Shown piece by piece: positions 51-53,630 of a DNA stretch of 64,000 nt; the first letter of the stretch is position 1, and each line of letters starts with the position of its first letter. The notes below the pieces were generated by a model that was not told where the DNA came from, ran no database searches, and worked only from the letters and a program-made list of their open reading frames with translations. The stretch comes from an uncultured archaeon (GTDB lineage Archaea > Asgardarchaeota > Lokiarchaeia > Sigyniarchaeales > SOKP01): positions 1,590 to 65,589 of the forward strand of contig CAZRBD010000001.1 of NCBI GenBank assembly GCA_964598265.1, given 5' to 3'. A program made the translations under genes and the position numbers.

Positions 51-1193
51 TTATAGCATACCATAAAAAATGAAAGCTGAAATTATTGTTAAAGTATTAT
101 ACACACCATGAGTAATTACCACAGCAATCAAGTTCTCATTTCTCCATTGATATAAAAGGCCTAACACTAAAGAAATCGCAAAATAAGGAATAAACGAGAG
201 AATGAATGAAATAATAATATATATCGGTGAGGTCAAATCAACTAAAAATAATCCGATTAAATGAATAAGTGAGAAAATTAAGGCGGTAACGATTATGCCA
301 CCTCTATTCCCTAATCTGCGTACTAAACCTTTTTGCATAAATCCTCTAAAGAGAATTTCTTCTGAAGTGCCAACAACTAAAATCATTACAATTGAAAATA
401 GAACGATACTTAGAATATCTGCTGAGGAAATTATTAGATCTACATCGTTGTTAGTACCACTAGCCTCTTGCACAATTTCTATGTTAAAAGTTGATTCTAA
501 TATAAGTTCAGTAAATAATGACACAAAAAATACTAAGAATAATCCAATTATTCCAAATAATATGCCAATTAAAACTTCTTTAGCAATCTCTGGTTTTTCA
601 AATCCTCTTGATGTGAAACCTAATAGAGCAAACCTATTTCCTAGGGTCGGATTCTGAAGATATTTCCCCACATAAATAGTTGGTAAAATTATAAAGATTA
701 ATTCAAATAGAGATAAGATAATTATAAAATAAGGGTTTGAAATGAGATCAAATAAAATTTCTAAATCAAAGGATACAAATGTGATTAAGAAAATAAAAGC
801 TGCAGTAAGAAAATTAATTAGAAGAAATGCACCTAAAGGTAGCCCAATAGAATTAGATGTACTCCAGAGCTTTTTTTGCTTAGTCTTGAGAATATCTTCA
901 TCCGGAATTTTCTTAAGGCCATAAGAAATTAATGGTTCAGATTGTATTGGATACGGAAGTGGTTGGACATATGGATTCGGATTTAATCTCGGTTGAAATC
1001 TCTTATACTTTTTTAAATATTGAAGATTTATACCACATTTAATACAATATTTAAGATTGTTAACTTTTGGGATTTTGTTTGCACAAACCGGGCAAAATGA
1101 CCATTCTATCCCTATTCCCTTTTTTATTTCCTTTTGAATAGAAGATTTTGCGTTTTTCGCATTATCCTTATCTTCTTTATCGTCCATTTTCAA
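51..1193 (-). CDS. CPBP-family (CAAX-type) intramembrane glutamic endopeptidase with N-terminal zinc ribbon
   Basis: N-terminal 'CPVC..x..CIKCG' ribbon, multiple TM helices, and CPBP motifs 'SEEILFRGF', 'FSLIHL' and 'HGVYN'. Confidence 0.75.
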   Translation of the reverse strand: MKMDDKEDKDNAKNAKSSIQKEIKKGIGIEWSFCPVCANKIPKVNNLKYCIKCGINLQYLKKYKRFQPRLNPNPYVQPLPYPIQSEPLISYGLKKIPDEDILKTKQKKLWSTSNSIGLPLGAFLLINFLTAAFIFLITFVSFDLEILFDLISNPYFIIILSLFELIFIILPTIYVGKYLQNPTLGNRFALLGFTSRGFEKPEIAKEVLIGILFGIIGLFLVFFVSLFTELILESTFNIEIVQEASGTNNDVDLIISSADILSIVLFSIVMILVVGTSEEILFRGFMQKGLVRRLGNRGGIIVTALIFSLIHLIGLFLVDLTSPIYIIISFILSFIPYFAISLVLGLLYQWRNENLIAVVITHGVYNTLTIISAFIFYGML

Positions 1194-1265
1194 TTTAAAA
1201 AAATAAATAATACTACTAAAAATTTTACATTTTAAATTAAAGAGAAAGATAGTGATTGTATTAAA

Positions 1266-6439: not shown

Positions 6440-6719
6440 TAATACATTATCTCACATATATTAATTATAATTTATAATCTAATCCTCAAATAAAAAAGAT
6501 TATTGTTACTAGACATTTCTTTTTTCCTAAAATCTAAGTTATTTTGGAGATGATATTTAGCATGAAATTTCGGAATTTTTAATATTAAAAGTGATTTAAT
6601 TCATTATATTATACAAATTGTAGATTTACATATCTTTCAATCTCAGAACAAATATAATTAATAGATAATAAATAGAGAATATAACAAATTATTAAGAAAT
6701 AAATTCGACAATTTATTAA

Positions 6720-6824
6720 GGCCTGGTAGTCCAGTCTGGATAGGGCGCTGGCTTGCGAAGCCAGACATCGAGGGTTCAAACCTCTTAACATGTAGGAAAG
6801 AGGGAATACATCCCTTCCAGGCCA
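6720..6824 (+). tRNA. tRNA-Arg (anticodon GCG) with a ~30-nt non-canonical intron in the T-arm
   Basis: Acceptor GGCCTGG (6720-6726) pairs perfectly with CCAGGCC (6817-6823), with discriminator A at 6824. D-stem is GTCC/GGGC. Anticodon stem is CTGGC/GCCAG with loop TTGCGAA. T-stem 5' GAGGG and TTCAAA follow, then ~30 nt intervene before CCCTT. This is the only GC-rich island in an AT-rich spacer. Confidence 0.8.
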
Positions 6825-6850
6825 CTTAGTTCTAAATAAAAATAAGATGT

Positions 6851-7621
6851 TTAAACAACGTAGTCTAAAATCTCTGATATATTGTTTATTTTGTGATAAT
6901 CGGTATTTTCAATTTCTTTTTCAAACGGAAATTTATATTTTCTCTCAAAAAGGATTGGCTGTATCTTAGTGCGCTGAGCACCTGAAATATCTGCATATTC
7001 ATCTCCGCACATGATTACAGATCTTGGGTCATTTCTTAACCCAAATTTATCAAGAACAAAATAAAATATGTCTGGATCTGGTTTTCTCTTTCCGAATTTA
7101 GCAGAAGTTAGTATAACATCAAAAAACTTGCTGAAATCATATTTATTAATAATATTTTTAATAGTTTTATGATTTGGGTGATTTGATAATAGTGCTACTT
7201 TGACATCTTTTAATGCTAATTTCTCTAACATTTCTTTAGTTTGGGCAAAGGGTATCCATCTATCCTCTTCACATGAATGATAAATATTAGCTAGGCTTCC
7301 ATATGTTGTGTCTATTAAGTTATCTAGGTTATTTATTACACCTTCTACCTTTAATGTTTCTAAAACATTTTAAAAGATTATTGAGGTTGGGAACTCCACT
7401 TTTGTTTTGATGCTTTTTCTGAAAAGATATTGCCTTTTTTTACTAAATTTTTGAAGAAAAGCTTCAATCGTTAATTTATCACTCCAAATTTGTTTTTCTT
7501 TTAAGAAATCAATAGATTTCATTAAACCTTGTTTAAAGCATTCATAATATCTCTCAACAGAAGGATCGTCAAAATAAAACAATGTGAACCCAAAATCAAA
7601 AATTACACCTTTTATCATCAA
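6851..7621 (-). pseudogene. HAD-superfamily hydrolase interrupted by a single in-frame TAA (7370-7372)
   Basis: ORFs 7370..7621 and 6851..7231 share one frame. The 46 codons between them are open and read '..NVLETLKVEGVINNLDNLIDTTYGSLANIYHSCEEDRWIPFAQTKE-MLEKLALKDVKVALLSN..'. HAD motifs present are 'IFDFGFT', 'LLSN' and 'K..KPDP..GDEYADISGA'. Confidence 0.7.
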
Positions 7622-19292: not shown

Positions 19293-21392
19293 ATGGATAA
19301 AATAATGGCGATAAATCCTCCAATTGTAGATTTGAACTCAATGGAAGCATTAATTGATGAGTTAAAGAATGCTACTGGGATGAAACTTGATCATTACCAA
19401 AGAAATTTCTTAGAAAAGCGAATTAATTTCAGAATGGAGCATTTAGGTATTGAAAATTACATAGATTATATTAATCTTATCCATTCGAGTCCTGTAGAGC
19501 GAGATTTGTTCCTAGATAAATTTACTATAAACTATACCTATTTTTTTAGAAATCTTACAGTTTTTCAGAATTTTGAGAAATTTATCCAATTTTATGTTAG
19601 GAAATTAGAAAAATCTAAAAAAATCATAAGAATTTGGTCGGCACCTTGTGCCACAGGTGATGAACCTTACTCTTTAGCAATGATATTGGATAATATTAAA
19701 AAAAAAAAAAAGATTTTTCCAGACTTTAAAATCTATGCCTCTGATATTGATACAAATGCTATTAAATTAGCCGTTGATGGTGAATATGGAGAATATGCTG
19801 TACATGAATTACCCGAACATTATTTAACAACTTACTTTACAAAAACAATTACTGAACTAGGACCTAAATACAAGATCAATGATCAGATTAAAAATAAAGT
19901 AGAATTCATTCAAGAAGATATTTTAAAAGGCTCTCATGTAAGTCAAAAGTATGATGTCATATTTTGTAGGAATTTTTTTATATATATTAACCAAAATGCT
20001 CGGGATCTTTTCTTAAAAATTATCGAAAACAGACTATATAATGGTGGTTTATTATGCATTGGTGGATCAGAAACATTAGCTCGTAAATATCATCATTTTA
20101 CTAGTGTTAACTTAAAAGATAGGTTCTATATTAAAGGTTATTTTGATAAAAATGAATCTTATAGAAATGGGATTGCTAAACTCTTAGGAGCTAAGAGAAT
20201 TACTAAAAAACACTCACCTTCAAGAAAAATTAAAAAACTTCTTAAAACAGAAAAGACGCGTGAAAAACCAAAAAGAGAAACGAAATTAATTGATGATATC
20301 AAGGAAATATTTGAAAGAAAAGAAATCAAGGAGGAAGTCCATGACATTCAAGGCAAAGAAAGAACGGAAGTTAAATTCACTAAAATTGTAGTAAATAATG
20401 GAACATTAGACGATAATATAAAACACACAACAGAGCCTTTAATAGTACCTACAGAAGAAGGGAAAACTTTATCATTAGAACATAGAGGAAAATCGTTAAA
20501 ACGTAGGGAATTATTACTACAGCAAAAAGAATTACATCTCGATGAGAAAATTAAATACATCGTTACTCAATCAAAATTCTTAGAAGGAGAAAGAGAGAAA
20601 ATTGATGAGCTCTCAGAAATTTTAAATAAAAAAGAAGAGGAAATAATTAACCGTACATTAGTTTTAGAACGTATTACAAGACAAACGGAACTAAAAGAAA
20701 GAAATGTGGCTCAAAGAGAGACTCAACTTGAAAAACGATTAAATTTAATAGAACAATACTCTAGACAAATGGTCGAACAAGAAAGACGTTTTTCTAATGA
20801 TTCTCGTAAATTTGCAGAGAATAATTCTAACGAAGATGAAATTAACTCCTTTGAGGAAAAAAGGATAGATCGAATTAAAACTCCGAACGAAAAAAACGAA
20901 TTAAATATTCCAAAAGGGTACTACAGCCTTATTAATTCCTTTGATAAAAATGAAAGATCTACTAAATTGACAATAAATGGATTAGGTTCGGGAATTGCCT
21001 TAGTTTTTAAAGATGCAATTAATAATATATTTGCCATGTCTCATATAACATTACCATCCTCAAGAGCTTCCAAACAGGGATATCATCTACTCTTTCCACA
21101 TACATTTGTAGATACATCAGTTCAAGATTTATATAATAACGTAATTTACAATGGAGGAAATAGGTCTAGTATCAAAGCTTTCATAGTTGGTGGTGCAAAA
21201 CTATTTTTAGACTATGATATGACTTATCAGGAGAATATTGATGCTATAAGAGAAGAATTAGCAGTACTTCAAATTGAGATTGAAGGCGAAGATATTGGAG
21301 GTTTAAGTGAAAGATCAATCAAATATGATACTATAAATGACGTTTTTTATGTAAAAAAAACCTGGGAATTTGAATATAGAAAAATAAAATAA
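19293..21392 (+). CDS. Fusion protein: CheR-type SAM methyltransferase, ~300-aa charged coiled coil, CheD-like domain
   Basis: CheR motifs 'IRIWSAPCATGDEPYSLAMIL' and 'IFCRNFFIYI'. CheD-like tail 'INGLGSGIALVF..IFAMSHITLP..AFIVGGAKLF..IEGEDIGGLSERS'. Confidence 0.7.
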   Translation: MDKIMAINPPIVDLNSMEALIDELKNATGMKLDHYQRNFLEKRINFRMEHLGIENYIDYINLIHSSPVERDLFLDKFTINYTYFFRNLTVFQNFEKFIQFYVRKLEKSKKIIRIWSAPCATGDEPYSLAMILDNIKKKKKIFPDFKIYASDIDTNAIKLAVDGEYGEYAVHELPEHYLTTYFTKTITELGPKYKINDQIKNKVEFIQEDILKGSHVSQKYDVIFCRNFFIYINQNARDLFLKIIENRLYNGGLLCIGGSETLARKYHHFTSVNLKDRFYIKGYFDKNESYRNGIAKLLGAKRITKKHSPSRKIKKLLKTEKTREKPKRETKLIDDIKEIFERKEIKEEVHDIQGKERTEVKFTKIVVNNGTLDDNIKHTTEPLIVPTEEGKTLSLEHRGKSLKRRELLLQQKELHLDEKIKYIVTQSKFLEGEREKIDELSEILNKKEEEIINRTLVLERITRQTELKERNVAQRETQLEKRLNLIEQYSRQMVEQERRFSNDSRKFAENNSNEDEINSFEEKRIDRIKTPNEKNELNIPKGYYSLINSFDKNERSTKLTINGLGSGIALVFKDAINNIFAMSHITLPSSRASKQGYHLLFPHTFVDTSVQDLYNNVIYNGGNRSSIKAFIVGGAKLFLDYDMTYQENIDAIREELAVLQIEIEGEDIGGLSERSIKYDTINDVFYVKKTWEFEYRKIK

Positions 21393-28198: not shown

Positions 28199-28735
28199 TT
28201 ATTCAACTAAATCCTTAAGGCATGCTCTTGCAATAAACTCAAACGCCTGCTCTACATTTAGTCCCGTTTTTGCTGATGTTTCCAAATAATTACAGCTCAA
28301 TTTCTTTGCCAAGTCTTCTGCCTCTGCTCTGTCAACTTCTCTCTCCAAATCCGCTTTATTCCCAAGAAGTATCATTGGAATAGTTTTCTTAACAGTTTTC
28401 TTTATTGAACTTATCCACCCTGGAATTTTGAGTAATGTTTGACTAGATGATAAATCAAACACACCAAGCGCAGCATTACTTCCCTTAAAGTAAATATTTC
28501 TAAGTTTATGAAATTGTGGTTGTCCTCCTATATCCCAAAGTAAAAGACGAACTGTTTTTCCATCAATATCCACATCTTTGATAAGGAAATTACTACCAAT
28601 AGTTTTTTTTAAATCCTCACCAAAATAATCTTTGATATATCGTAGTAATAAACTTGTCTTCCCCACTCCTCCAGGTCCAAACAAGGTTATCTTAAATTTA
28701 AACAACGAATTTGGCGACATTTTTAATCTCCTCAT
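28199..28735 (-). CDS. Ras/Rab-like small GTPase
   Basis: All five G boxes are present: 'GPGGVGKTS' (G1), T in 'KKTIGSNF' (G2), 'WDIGGQ' (G3), 'GNKADL' (G4) and 'ETSAK' (G5). There is no C-terminal prenylation box. Confidence 0.85.
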   Translation of the reverse strand: MRRLKMSPNSLFKFKITLFGPGGVGKTSLLLRYIKDYFGEDLKKTIGSNFLIKDVDIDGKTVRLLLWDIGGQPQFHKLRNIYFKGSNAALGVFDLSSSQTLLKIPGWISSIKKTVKKTIPMILLGNKADLEREVDRAEAEDLAKKLSCNYLETSAKTGLNVEQAFEFIARACLKDLVE

Positions 28736-40220: not shown

Positions 40221-41351
40221 TTGATGAAAAAAAATAAGAAAATTGACCCCTTTAATACACCAGCAGTGTTAACTCTAAAGGCATATAAGAGAATTATAGG
40301 ATATGCGAATAGATATGCAAATCAGAATTTAAATACATCTAAATGGCGCGAGGTATATGGGATCCTGATTGGAGCAATAGAAAATGACGAAAAGATTATT
40401 GTAAAGGATGCTATACCTATGGTTGTTGGAGATCGTGCTGGTGTTAAATATGAAAATAAACAATATGTAGATATGGCTCAAATAGATGCTTCAGTTTTTG
40501 AAAGATCAATACAAGATAATAAAAATGATTTTATTATTGGTTGGTTTCATACACACCCAGGATTTGGTTTTTTCTATTCCCCAATTGACTGTTTGACTCA
40601 ACTGGGATATCAACTCCCAAATCCTTATGCATTAGGGCTTGTTTTTGACCATTGTGAAAAAAAATCTGAGTCTCACTCTTTGGGAATCGCTGGATTACGA
40701 CTTAAAAATCCTGAAAGAGGAATTTCTTCAACATACGATCTAATAGAGTTAGAATATGAATTTGAACAAAATTTAATGAATAAGGAAGCAAAAGCCGTTA
40801 CTAAGAAAGTTGATAAAAATATTGAAAAGGTCCTGAAGGAATTAGAGTTTATAAGTGAAATTCTTCGGAAAAAAGCGTTAGCCCAATTACAGAGAAATTA
40901 TGGCCTTATTTTAGTACCTAAAGAAGATGTTATAATTACTCATAATGAAGCAGAAGCAAATGCAGATGAACGGTATTTATATGAATGGGATCCTGATTTT
41001 TTTAAAAAATCGTATCGTATTCCCAAATTTAGAGAAAAAATAGAAAAAATGATTTCGGCTGCTTATGATGAACTAGATGATTTAATTGGAAAGAAAGATG
41101 AAATAAAATTTAAAGTTAGGAAAGAAAGGCTCAAGAAAAAAATTAAAACGGTTTTAAAGAAACCCAATGAATGGTATGATAAATTAATTGATGATTTTTC
41201 AAAAAAAATTGATTTAATATATCCTTTTTATGATTATCTAGACACTACCGAAAGAAAAGTTATCGAACATTTTGAAGAGAGAAGTTCTGAATATTTTAAG
41301 GTTTTAAATGAATTAAATAAACGTATAAAATTAAATTTAAAGGATTATTGA
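40221..41351 (+). CDS. JAB1/MPN/Mov34 (JAMM) metalloprotease with ~200-aa helical C-terminal extension
   Basis: Exact JAMM motif HxHx7Sx2D in 'HTHPGFGFFYSPID', with an upstream Glu in 'REVYGILIG'. Confidence 0.75.
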   Translation: MMKKNKKIDPFNTPAVLTLKAYKRIIGYANRYANQNLNTSKWREVYGILIGAIENDEKIIVKDAIPMVVGDRAGVKYENKQYVDMAQIDASVFERSIQDNKNDFIIGWFHTHPGFGFFYSPIDCLTQLGYQLPNPYALGLVFDHCEKKSESHSLGIAGLRLKNPERGISSTYDLIELEYEFEQNLMNKEAKAVTKKVDKNIEKVLKELEFISEILRKKALAQLQRNYGLILVPKEDVIITHNEAEANADERYLYEWDPDFFKKSYRIPKFREKIEKMISAAYDELDDLIGKKDEIKFKVRKERLKKKIKTVLKKPNEWYDKLIDDFSKKIDLIYPFYDYLDTTERKVIEHFEERSSEYFKVLNELNKRIKLNLKDY

Positions 41352-52633: not shown

Positions 52634-53029
52634 TTACCAAGTTTCTACTTGCACTTTATGAACTTTTTCATAGTGTTTAATGTTTCGTGTTATTAATTTA
52701 ATATCCTTTTCAATAGCGATCGAAGCAATAAAAATATCTAATTCATTAATTAATTCCTCCTTTCTTTTTAGGCTTGCTCTAATTTCACCATAAATCTTCC
52801 CGTCAATAATATCAAAGGGATATATTACCAACTTAGACAGTAATTTATTAACTGCATTTATATTTTCTTCTTTACTTTCCGAGAGATATGCTCCAAAATA
52901 TAATTCAGCAACATTAATGGAAGATGTTGACAATAACTGATAGCTTTCAAGTAGTCTAGAAATTTCCTTCTTCGCATCCTCGTCATTTCTTAAGAATTGT
53001 ATAAGAATATCTGTATCTAAAAGAACCAT
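52634..53029 (-). CDS. vapC: PIN-domain toxin VapC
   Basis: 'MVLLDTDILIQFL' first acidic motif and a later 'D' in 'ELDIFIASIA..ITRN'. Size 131 aa. Confidence 0.75.
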   Translation of the reverse strand: MVLLDTDILIQFLRNDEDAKKEISRLLESYQLLSTSSINVAELYFGAYLSESKEENINAVNKLLSKLVIYPFDIIDGKIYGEIRASLKRKEELINELDIFIASIAIEKDIKLITRNIKHYEKVHKVQVETW

Positions 53030-53262
53030 TATAATTCAACCCTTCGGATTTGTGAGTTTTTTCGATTTTCATATATTATCTTTAAAAGCTTATCTGATTC
53101 AACTTTTGAACCTTGCCAAGATCCTGCTAACTCAAGGATTTCCTTTTGAGCTGGTTCTGATGTTAATCGAAGAATTAAATCATTAAATGATTCTTTTTTC
53201 CGTTTTTTACGTTTAAGCGCATTATACGCCTCGTCTGAAACGGAAATTGTTTTATAACCCAT
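53029..53262 (-). CDS. vapB: VapB-type antitoxin (RHH-like)
   Basis: 77 aa with a 1-nt overlap on vapC. The N-terminus 'KTISVSDEAYNALKRKK' is strand-helix-like. Confidence 0.55.
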   Translation of the reverse strand: MGYKTISVSDEAYNALKRKKRKKESFNDLILRLTSEPAQKEILELAGSWQGSKVESDKLLKIIYENRKNSQIRRVEL

Positions 53263-53384: not shown

Positions 53385-53630
53385 GTGTCAGAAGAAAAGA
53401 TTGTGGTTTCTAAAGAGAAGAAAATTTGCTTGGTTTGTATAAGTGAAGTGCTACGGTTCTCATATATATGCAAATGTGGTGCTAATTATTGTGAAAATTG
53501 TGCTCGAGCATTAATTAATTTGGAAAATGTTTGCTTGGCTTGCGATGTTCCAATTGATTATTCAAAACCTGTGAAACCATTTAAGGATGAAGAAGAACGC
53601 ATAGAAATTCAGGAAAAAGCAAAAAAATGA
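53385..53630 (+). CDS. Small C4C4 RING-like zinc-finger protein
   Basis: Cys spacing is C-x2-C-x10-C-x-C-x4-C-x2-C-x10-C-x2-C in 'CLVC..CKC..CENC..CLAC'. Confidence 0.55.
   Translation: MSEEKIVVSKEKKICLVCISEVLRFSYICKCGANYCENCARALINLENVCLACDVPIDYSKPVKPFKDEEERIEIQEKAKK

Follow-up and report, generated by a model that had tools for sequence, protein, structure and literature searches.

How a tRNA gene can yield a tRNA when the two strands of its acceptor stem are separated by 90 nucleotides (nt) is the question raised by positions 6720-6824 of the DNA analysed here, a 64,000-nt stretch of contig CAZRBD010000001.1 from an uncultured archaeon (positions 1,590 to 65,589, forward strand; hereafter the window). 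An earlier note on this DNA, made from the letters alone, had read the segment as a tRNA-Arg(GCG) gene with an intron of about 30 nt in the T arm. We found that the fold, the call obtained on the spliced sequence and the orthologs all agree with this, and that 6720-6824 (+) is very probably a functional tRNA-Arg(GCG) gene with one 30-nt intron of the bulge-helix-bulge (BHB) type in its T-loop, which would be removed by splicing. The parts of the gene are the following.

6720-6824 (+): the tRNA-Arg(GCG) gene, from G1 to the discriminator A73, with a 105-nt precursor that is 75 nt long without the intron
6720-6779 (+): exon 1, tRNA positions 1-58, drawn from the sequence and pair counts, its end set by the BHB cutting rule
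6720-6726 (+): acceptor 5' strand GGCCTGG, the perfect complement of CCAGGCC at 6817-6823, 90 nt away
6729-6746 (+): D arm, from the sequence, with its stem at 6729-6732 / 6743-6746
6748-6764 (+): anticodon arm, with its stem at 6748-6752 / 6760-6764, loop TTGCGAA and anticodon GCG at 6755-6757
6765-6769 (+): variable loop ACATC, from the sequence
6770-6774 (+): T-stem 5' strand GAGGG, where GAGGG-TTCAAA spans 6770-6780
6775-6779 (+): T-loop U54-A58, the end of exon 1
6780-6809 (+): predicted 30-nt intron at position 58/59, which drawn as 6781-6810 at 59/60 leaves the same 75-nt product
6810-6824 (+): exon 2, with A59 and U60 at 6810-6811 and the discriminator A at 6824
6812-6816 (+): T-stem 3' strand CCCTT, in exon 2, pairing with 6770-6774
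6817-6823 (+): acceptor 3' strand CCAGGCC, in exon 2, showing compensatory changes with 6720-6726 across lineages

The gene begins GGCCTGG TA GTCC AGTCTGGATA GGGC G CTGGC TTGCGAA GCCAG ACATC GAGGG TTCAAA before running on into the intron, and from 6781 onward its 3' part reads CCTCTT AACATGTAGGA AAGAGG GAATACAT CCCTT CCAGGCC A, with no CCA encoded. The 7-base-pair (bp) acceptor stem and the T stem close only after 30 nt are removed from the T-loop. The 12-mer that joins the T-stem 3' strand to the acceptor 3' strand, CCCTTCCAGGCC, occurs once in the window with up to one mismatch allowed (chance expectation 0.05). When 6720-6827 (108 nt) was folded, the minimum-energy structure was the interrupted cloverleaf itself (-42.3 kcal/mol, z = -3.2), in which the acceptor strands 6720-6726 and 6817-6823 are paired, and UUCAAA, a hairpin and GAAUACAU lie inside the T stem GAGGG/CCCUU. 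With the Rfam tRNA model (RF00005, gathering score 29) the window gene reaches 31 bits in a match that is confined to model positions 8-63 and leaves the acceptor stem unaligned, which is what a gene interrupted in this way would give. Once spliced in silico, the 75-nt sequence is called tRNA-Arg(gcg) by ARAGORN and forms a complete cloverleaf (acceptor stem of 7 bp, D stem of 4 bp, anticodon and T stems of 5 bp each) with U33 and 7-nt loops UUGCGAA and UUCAAAU, the latter matching the T-loop pattern UUCRA. On the unspliced sequence the intron option of ARAGORN returned the same calls as a run without it, because only introns at the canonical position are modelled. An independent assembly (Logan SRR8482198, L031) holds the identical 105 nt, and therefore the gene is no assembly artefact.

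These results bear on several particulars of the earlier note. The perfect pairing of GGCCTGG with CCAGGCC, the canonical D arm and the uninterrupted anticodon arm with loop TTGCGAA were all found where it had placed them, and a covariance model, whose failure to find a tRNA here it had named as a refutation, does detect one above the gathering score. It had also dismissed the open reading frame (ORF) 6609-6791 (-), of 60 amino acids (aa), as an artefact, which appears to be a reasonable reading, as this frame lies antisense over the tRNA and extends into upstream sequence that is not conserved in the related contig L002.

Orthologs of the gene in further Promethearchaeota contigs were collected by synteny look-ups and two pattern scans, and were sorted into four groups by the state of the insert. 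The contig scan with a pattern contributed one relevant match (L008), six bacterial matches being left out, and a scan of viral contigs with the 5' half of the tRNA gave no match. Group A comprises the window, L031, L002 and L024, which carry the same gene and intron, with L002 differing from the window by one variable-loop base and three intron bases, all of which are unpaired or convert a G-U pair to G-C. Group B (L004, L015, L016, L019 and L023) has a 30-nt insert at the same place, almost wholly different in sequence (CTTTAATAAAATTCTTATTTAAGGAATAAG), within a tRNA whose acceptor stem is AGCCCAG/CTGGGCT and whose T stem is GGGGG/CCCCC, and its locus keeps the HAD, MBL and GluRS neighbourhood of the window. 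In L004 the group B gene lies at about 457-560 (-). Group C is a single intron-less gene in a marine-sediment metagenome (L020, 8597-8670, +), with a T arm reading GGGGG TTCAAAT CCCCC whose stem directly adjoins the acceptor strand; its full-length match to the Rfam tRNA model has 66.8 bits, compared with 31 bits for the interrupted window gene. L020 agrees with the window in its upstream flank and with group B in its downstream flank, and it therefore represents the same locus. Finally, group D consists of L008 4606-4706 (-), L014 1668-1768 (-) and L017 807-907 (-), in which the T-loop TTCAAAT is uninterrupted and a 26-nt insert is found instead in the variable loop, at position 45/46.

The next step is where the precursor would be cut. 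Around the intron ends of the window gene we observe a BHB motif made up of the following elements, the comparisons being those within and between groups A and B.

6774-6777 (+): 5' strand GUUC of the central helix H (G53-U54-U55-C56), paired in all four aligned sequences
6778-6780 (+): 5' bulge AAA, 3 nt, containing the predicted 5' splice site 6779/6780, invariant in groups A and B
6781-6803 (+): inner hairpin h', CCUCUU 6781-6786 with AAGAGG 6798-6803, 6 bp and an 11-nt loop at 6787-6797, present in the minimum-energy fold
6804-6807 (+): 3' strand GAAU of the central helix H, forming 4 bp with 6774-6777
6808-6812 (+): 3' bulge ACA(UC), 5 nt, containing the predicted 3' splice site 6809/6810, from sequence and structure

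The earlier note had described the CCTCTT/AAGAGG helix beside a 3-nt AAA bulge as resembling a relaxed BHB motif. Both elements were recovered, and the core proved more complete than it had seen, through a 4-bp GUUC/GAAU helix (G6774-U6807, U6775-A6806, U6776-A6805 and C6777-G6804) that fixes the cuts at 6779/6780 and 6809/6810. The 4-bp exon-intron helix and the 3-nt 5' bulge between H and h' are thus in place. The 3' bulge is 5 rather than 3 nt long because G6774 moves from the T stem into helix H, the four remaining T-stem pairs (6770-6773 with 6813-6816) forming the outer helix, and its bases differ among lineages (ACA, AAA and AAG).

A BHB motif consists of a 4-bp helix between two 3-nt bulges, a helix to which canonical pre-tRNAs contribute the first two bases of the anticodon (PMC4090602); together with a cut at 37/38, this means that each cut falls two bases into its bulge. 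Applied to the window, the rule takes out 30 nt, so that GAGGG UUCAAAU CCCUU remains, and it likewise gives a 30-nt removal and a 7-nt T-loop in L002 and in group B (L004). Had the register been wrong by one base, the loop would have come out at 6 or 8 nt, and its length of 7 nt therefore checks the reading independently. The T-loop predicted for group A after splicing, UUCAAAU, is the loop encoded by the intron-less L020 and by the group D orthologs, and the predicted exon junction in the spliced tRNA reads ...GAGGGUUCAAAUCCCUUCCAGGCCA, with GAGGGUUCAA joined to AUCCCUUCCAGGCCA. Because A6780 and A6810 are identical, positions 58/59 and 59/60 give one product in the window, and exon 1 may equally well end at 6780. 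In group D the motif is near-canonical, with two AAA bulges flanking a 4-bp helix of CCAG with CUGG that uses the 3' strand of the anticodon stem (in L008 one strand of this helix is AUGG, giving one mismatch with CCAG). Removing the group D insert by the same rule leaves a 5-nt variable loop AAAUC (AGAUC in L017) in a 75-nt tRNA.

Covariation was assessed in a four-sequence alignment of groups A and B, which replaced an eight-sequence MAFFT alignment that misaligned group D. The two groups align without gaps across the insert and share the BHB structure in 4/4 sequences. Pairing was observed in 98.3% of cells of the alignment, and shifting the partners by 1-3 columns lowered this to 37-62%. 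In seven pairs both partners have changed; the long-range acceptor stem and the intron hairpin hold three such pairs each and the T stem holds one. The helix H pair formed by G53 with U becomes G-C in L002, and group B has U-U in place of one of the six intron-hairpin pairs. Despite turnover of the loop and stem sequences, group B keeps the AAA bulge and the GUUC/GAAU helix.

Several properties of the intron itself were recorded separately. In group A only, it creates two T-arm look-alikes, GAGGG-UUCAAAC-CUCUU (6770-6786) and GAGGG-AAUACAU-CCCUU (6800-6816), which when formed together give a suboptimal fold of -12.3 kcal/mol compared with -13.5 kcal/mol for the spliceable form. The first of these is what misleads ARAGORN and Rfam, and the pair may hint that the intron goes back to a partly duplicated T arm. 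The possibility that the intron holds a box C/D guide RNA was considered and rejected, since 6780-6809 offers only 30 nt and contains neither a C box (UGAUGA) nor a D box (CUGA). A second copy of the intron sequence, sought in the window with up to three mismatches as a test of intron transposition, was not found, and a permissive Rfam scan of the whole window returned no other interrupted tRNAs or small RNAs.

A number of points weigh against reading the segment as a spliced BHB gene or limit how precisely it can be read. The strict definition asks for a 3-nt 3' bulge, and with its 5 nt the motif belongs to the relaxed HBh' type, a class recognised among non-canonical introns (PMC4090602, PMC5829648). 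For the T-arm fragment of the window the energy model favours the T stem plus hairpin without helix H (-13.5 kcal/mol), and the conformer in which the UUC/GAA pairs stack on the hairpin reaches -11.6 kcal/mol, about 2 above the minimum; these energies were taken from T-arm sub-folds rather than full-length folds, in which alternative D-arm pairings confound the comparison. Under the 58/59 rule the group B T-loop becomes UUCAAGU, compared with UUCAAAU in its relatives, which a 59/60 junction would restore, and the rule may therefore not hold exactly in group B. The alignment contains three distinct intron sequences from two lineages, too few for statistics, and lends qualitative support. The closest neighbouring contig, L001, whose MBL protein is 90% identical, has no tRNA between its HAD and MBL genes. 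In addition, the EndA and RtcB families are absent among the 60 window ORFs scanned with Pfam. The gene, the geometry of the motif and its conservation, and the intron-less form in a relative are seen directly in the sequences; that the gene is expressed and spliced, by which enzymes, and whether at 58/59 or 59/60, is what we infer from them.

Among the alternatives, the one that survives best, and is itself improbable, is that of a dead pseudogene, in which the 30-nt insertion is not removed and another gene supplies tRNA-Arg(GCG). The weak or partial scores of standard finders (31 bits), the lack of a tRNA at this locus in the close relative L001, and the in-frame stop in the neighbouring HAD gene, a sign of some decay in the region, would all be in keeping with it. 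However, lineages that share only 75-85% identity in the neighbouring proteins still have the insert and both half-stems, compensatory changes are seen in the intron hairpin as well as in the acceptor and T stems, the exons leave every stem fully paired with an insert geometry that fits exact excision, and a splicing motif would not be expected to persist while the loop sequence turns over.

Less credible still is an uninterrupted tRNA at 6721-6794, with GAGGG-TTCAAAC-CTCTT as its T arm and the downstream CCCTTCCAGGCC a coincidence. This is the 74-nt gene that ARAGORN calls, and Rfam similarly aligns GAGGGUUCAAACCUCUU as the T arm. The acceptor stem of this gene, though, would have two of seven positions unpaired and one G-U pair, against seven Watson-Crick pairs with 6817-6823, and is left out of the Rfam match, and the T stem GAGGG/CTCTT needs two G-U pairs. 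The same pseudo-T-arm is impossible in group B, where both ARAGORN and Rfam overlook the gene, yet the distant acceptor strand co-varies there, and the coincidence that it demands of the 12-mer has the expectation of 0.05 per window given above.

The earlier note had offered two splice solutions, and only one of them stands. If CTCTT at 6782-6786 formed the 3' side of the T stem, the intron would lie at 65/66 and 6787-6816 would be removed, which is also 30 nt, and GAGGG/CTCTT does pair with two G-U pairs; nevertheless this solution has very little to recommend it, as its junctions are not bracketed by a BHB-like motif and it fails in both group B, where the equivalent TTTAA cannot pair with GGGGG, and L020. 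In L020 and group D a C-rich T-stem strand adjoins the acceptor strand, as CCCTT 6812-6816 does in the other solution. Lastly, a mobile-element scar or a duplication in the 3' part of the gene in place of an intron is scarcely plausible: in archaea, integrative elements commonly insert into tRNA genes at their 3' parts, GAGGG is present at both 6770-6774 and 6800-6804, and 6800-6816 folds as a T-arm look-alike (in the suboptimal fold of -12.3 kcal/mol), but the insert measures only 30 nt, its flanks hold no integrase or other element genes, the GAGGG repeat is absent from group B despite the same architecture, and the intron sequence is found nowhere else in the window.

Taking 6720-6824 as an intron-bearing tRNA-Arg(GCG) gene, the orthologs can be compared as states of one locus. 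A single Lokiarchaeia-like tRNA-Arg(GCG) locus that has at least three states with shared flanks may record recent and repeated gain, loss or relocation of introns, a reading that we put forward tentatively and rate at somewhat less than even. The locus is being rearranged among close relatives. No tRNA-Arg(GCG) was found in the synteny look-ups near the MBL-fold homologs P0005, P0007, P0012 and P0014 (L027-L030) or on L001, and the synteny of the tRNA locus holds only for the closest lineages. We also observe that L001 (2632-3000) and L002 have in common a short conserved sequence (…CCCATTGATCCAACGGA…TTTGGGTTGAATATTA), which the window lacks.

One of the group B contigs, L019, carries a second tRNA of 104 nt at 1129-1232 (+), which scores 48.7 bits over the full model and has an anticodon loop UCCGGAA, apparently with anticodon CGG and with C, not U, at position 33. 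An insert of about 30 nt lies in its variable region, between the anticodon and T stems, and, read by eye from the sequence, it looks like a BHB intron at around 43/44, with an ACCA/UGGU helix, two AGA bulges and a long inner hairpin. Overall, a non-canonical intron is found in 3/5 distinct tRNA genes seen in these Asgard contigs.

From these elements a processing pathway can be proposed. The precursor would probably be transcribed from an AT-rich promoter, for which one candidate was noted, with low confidence.

6689-6703 (+): putative promoter element, with the sequence TTATTAAGAAATAAA, lying 17-31 nt ahead of the mature 5' end

The block TTATTAAGAAATAAA is shared with the intron-less L020, where it reads TTAATAAGAAATAAATTCGACAATTT, and partly with L002, and the upstream sequences diverge elsewhere; as the region is AT-rich throughout, this is weak evidence for a promoter element. 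In the precursor the 4-bp central helix would arise through pairing of the T-loop bases 6774-6777 with GAAU 6804-6807 of the intron, and EndA would cut two bases into each bulge, after which an RtcB-type ligase would join the exons, restoring the T stem GAGGG/CCCUU and the T-loop UUCAAAU. RNase P and RNase Z would then trim the ends, and a CCA-adding enzyme would complete the 75-nt tRNA, a step called for because no CCA is encoded.

The relaxed 3' site implies that an EndA of broad specificity is needed, of which there are two kinds, (alpha-beta)2 with an L1 loop and epsilon2. Asgard EndA is reported to be an (alpha-beta)2 enzyme with an L1 loop, the element that gives broad specificity in Crenarchaeota, and strict alpha4 or alpha'2 endonucleases are not expected to process such a relaxed motif (PMC5829648). 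The earlier note had expected the intron to be informative about the type of splicing endonuclease, and the premise that it is non-canonical stood; it is less informative than hoped, as the host belongs to the Asgard archaea, for which such an EndA and non-canonical tRNA introns are already published (PMC5829648, PMC11291895).

We next compared the gene with known systems. Intron sites in the T-loop are known at 53/54, 56/57 and 59/60 in Thermoproteales, other Crenarchaeota and ARMAN-2 (PMC4090602, PMC5829648), and the ARMAN-2 tRNA-Cys(GCA) 59/60 intron, of the hBH type, has been used as a test substrate (PMC5829648). The window intron resembles these in being short, in drawing T-loop bases into the central helix, in having its sites in bulges beside a 4-bp helix, and in having one relaxed side that would need a broad-specificity EndA. 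It differs in its Lokiarchaeia-like Asgard host, in residing in tRNA-Arg(GCG), in its position, 58/59 by the rule and indistinguishable from 59/60, and in its canonical half, which is the 5' splice site in the window (HBh' type) as opposed to the hBH arrangement described for ARMAN-2. Compared with the canonical 37/38 hBHBh' intron, the 4-bp helix, the 3-nt 5' bulge, the cuts two bases in and presumably the joining by RtcB are shared, whereas the site is in the T-loop and not the anticodon loop, and the 3' bulge is 5 nt long.

Within Asgard archaea, non-canonical tRNA introns were surveyed in Loki-, Thor-, Odin- and Heimdallarchaeota by Kaneta et al. 2018 (PMC5829648), and Valentin-Alvarado et al. 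2024 reported introns in 92-95% of the tRNA genes of Atabeyarchaeia/Freyarchaeia, often at non-canonical positions (PMC11291895). The superphylum, the intron class and the presumed (alpha-beta)2 EndA with its L1 loop are the same here; these surveys are genome-wide tallies, whereas the present comparison is of an orthologous locus and covers three intron states of one gene. Intron transposition in Thermoproteales (Fujishima 2010, as cited in PMC4090602) and heterogeneity of tRNA genes in Caldiarchaeum populations (PMC3293823) are similar in that orthologous tRNA genes of related genomes differ in the presence and site of an intron, and unlike in that the gene here is a Lokiarchaeia-like tRNA-Arg(GCG) with the intron at 58/59, at 45/46 or absent. 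As no similar intron sequence occurs at another site of the window, transposition is not shown.

Earlier papers have thus already described BHB introns of the T-loop as well as Asgard tRNA introns at non-canonical sites, and current understanding is unchanged. What is added is the exact motif and junction, the observation that standard finders mis-call or miss the gene, and the three intron states at one locus. The group B tRNA is missed by ARAGORN, and by Rfam at the gathering threshold on 5/5 contigs, so that Arg(GCG) may be reported as missing or wrong in Lokiarchaeia bins, lowering their apparent tRNA completeness. The gene also provides a defined relaxed-BHB substrate, in which the 5' site is canonical and the 3' bulge enlarged, for studying how specific the (alpha-beta)2 endonuclease of Asgard archaea is, the enzyme that among archaea is most closely related to the TSEN complex of eukaryotes. 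The three states amount to a small natural experiment on intron turnover. If the reading of repeated gain, loss or relocation is true, one gene would bear the record of these events in the lineage of archaea that stands nearest to eukaryotes, and the locus would offer a natural series on intron movement and on the protection of tRNA genes from integrating elements.

The remaining genes of the window identify its host as a Loki-type Asgard archaeon (Promethearchaeota), not a member of the Thermoproteales. The G+C content is about 29%. The neighbouring MBL-fold/alkyl-sulfatase protein has hundreds of close homologs, the named ones among them being from Promethearchaeota, Lokiarchaeota, Hodarchaeota or Thorarchaeota, and the window further encodes a translin-family protein, an archaeal ThrRS editing domain, Alba, TruD, PTH2 and a thermosome subunit. 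Three eukaryote-like signature proteins were also observed, namely a Ras-family small GTPase at 28199-28735 (-) with E = 3e-47, a JAB/MPN-domain protein at 40221-41351 (+), and an 81-aa ORF at 53385-53630 (+) with a weak RING-finger (zf-C3HC4_3) match of 22 bits compared with the Pfam cut-off of 27 bits; all three are consistent with an Asgard origin.

Downstream of the tRNA, the HAD-family hydrolase gene at 6851-7621 (-) is a 257-codon frame with an in-frame TAA at 7370-7372. The L002 ortholog has Gln at the position of this stop (SIIFQKVLE compared with SIIF*NVLE in the window), and the independent assembly L031 shows the same split, with a 126-aa C-terminal ORF. The stop is probably a real nonsense mutation, leaving a pseudogene or a two-piece gene. 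Farther along, at 52634-53262 (-), a 131-aa PIN-domain ORF and a 77-aa ORF share base 53029 and, from the PIN match to the larger ORF, look like a VapBC-type toxin-antitoxin pair. Finally, a 699-aa ORF at 19293-21392 (+) combines N-terminal CheR methyltransferase domains with a C-terminal CheD, a fused chemotaxis-adaptation protein.

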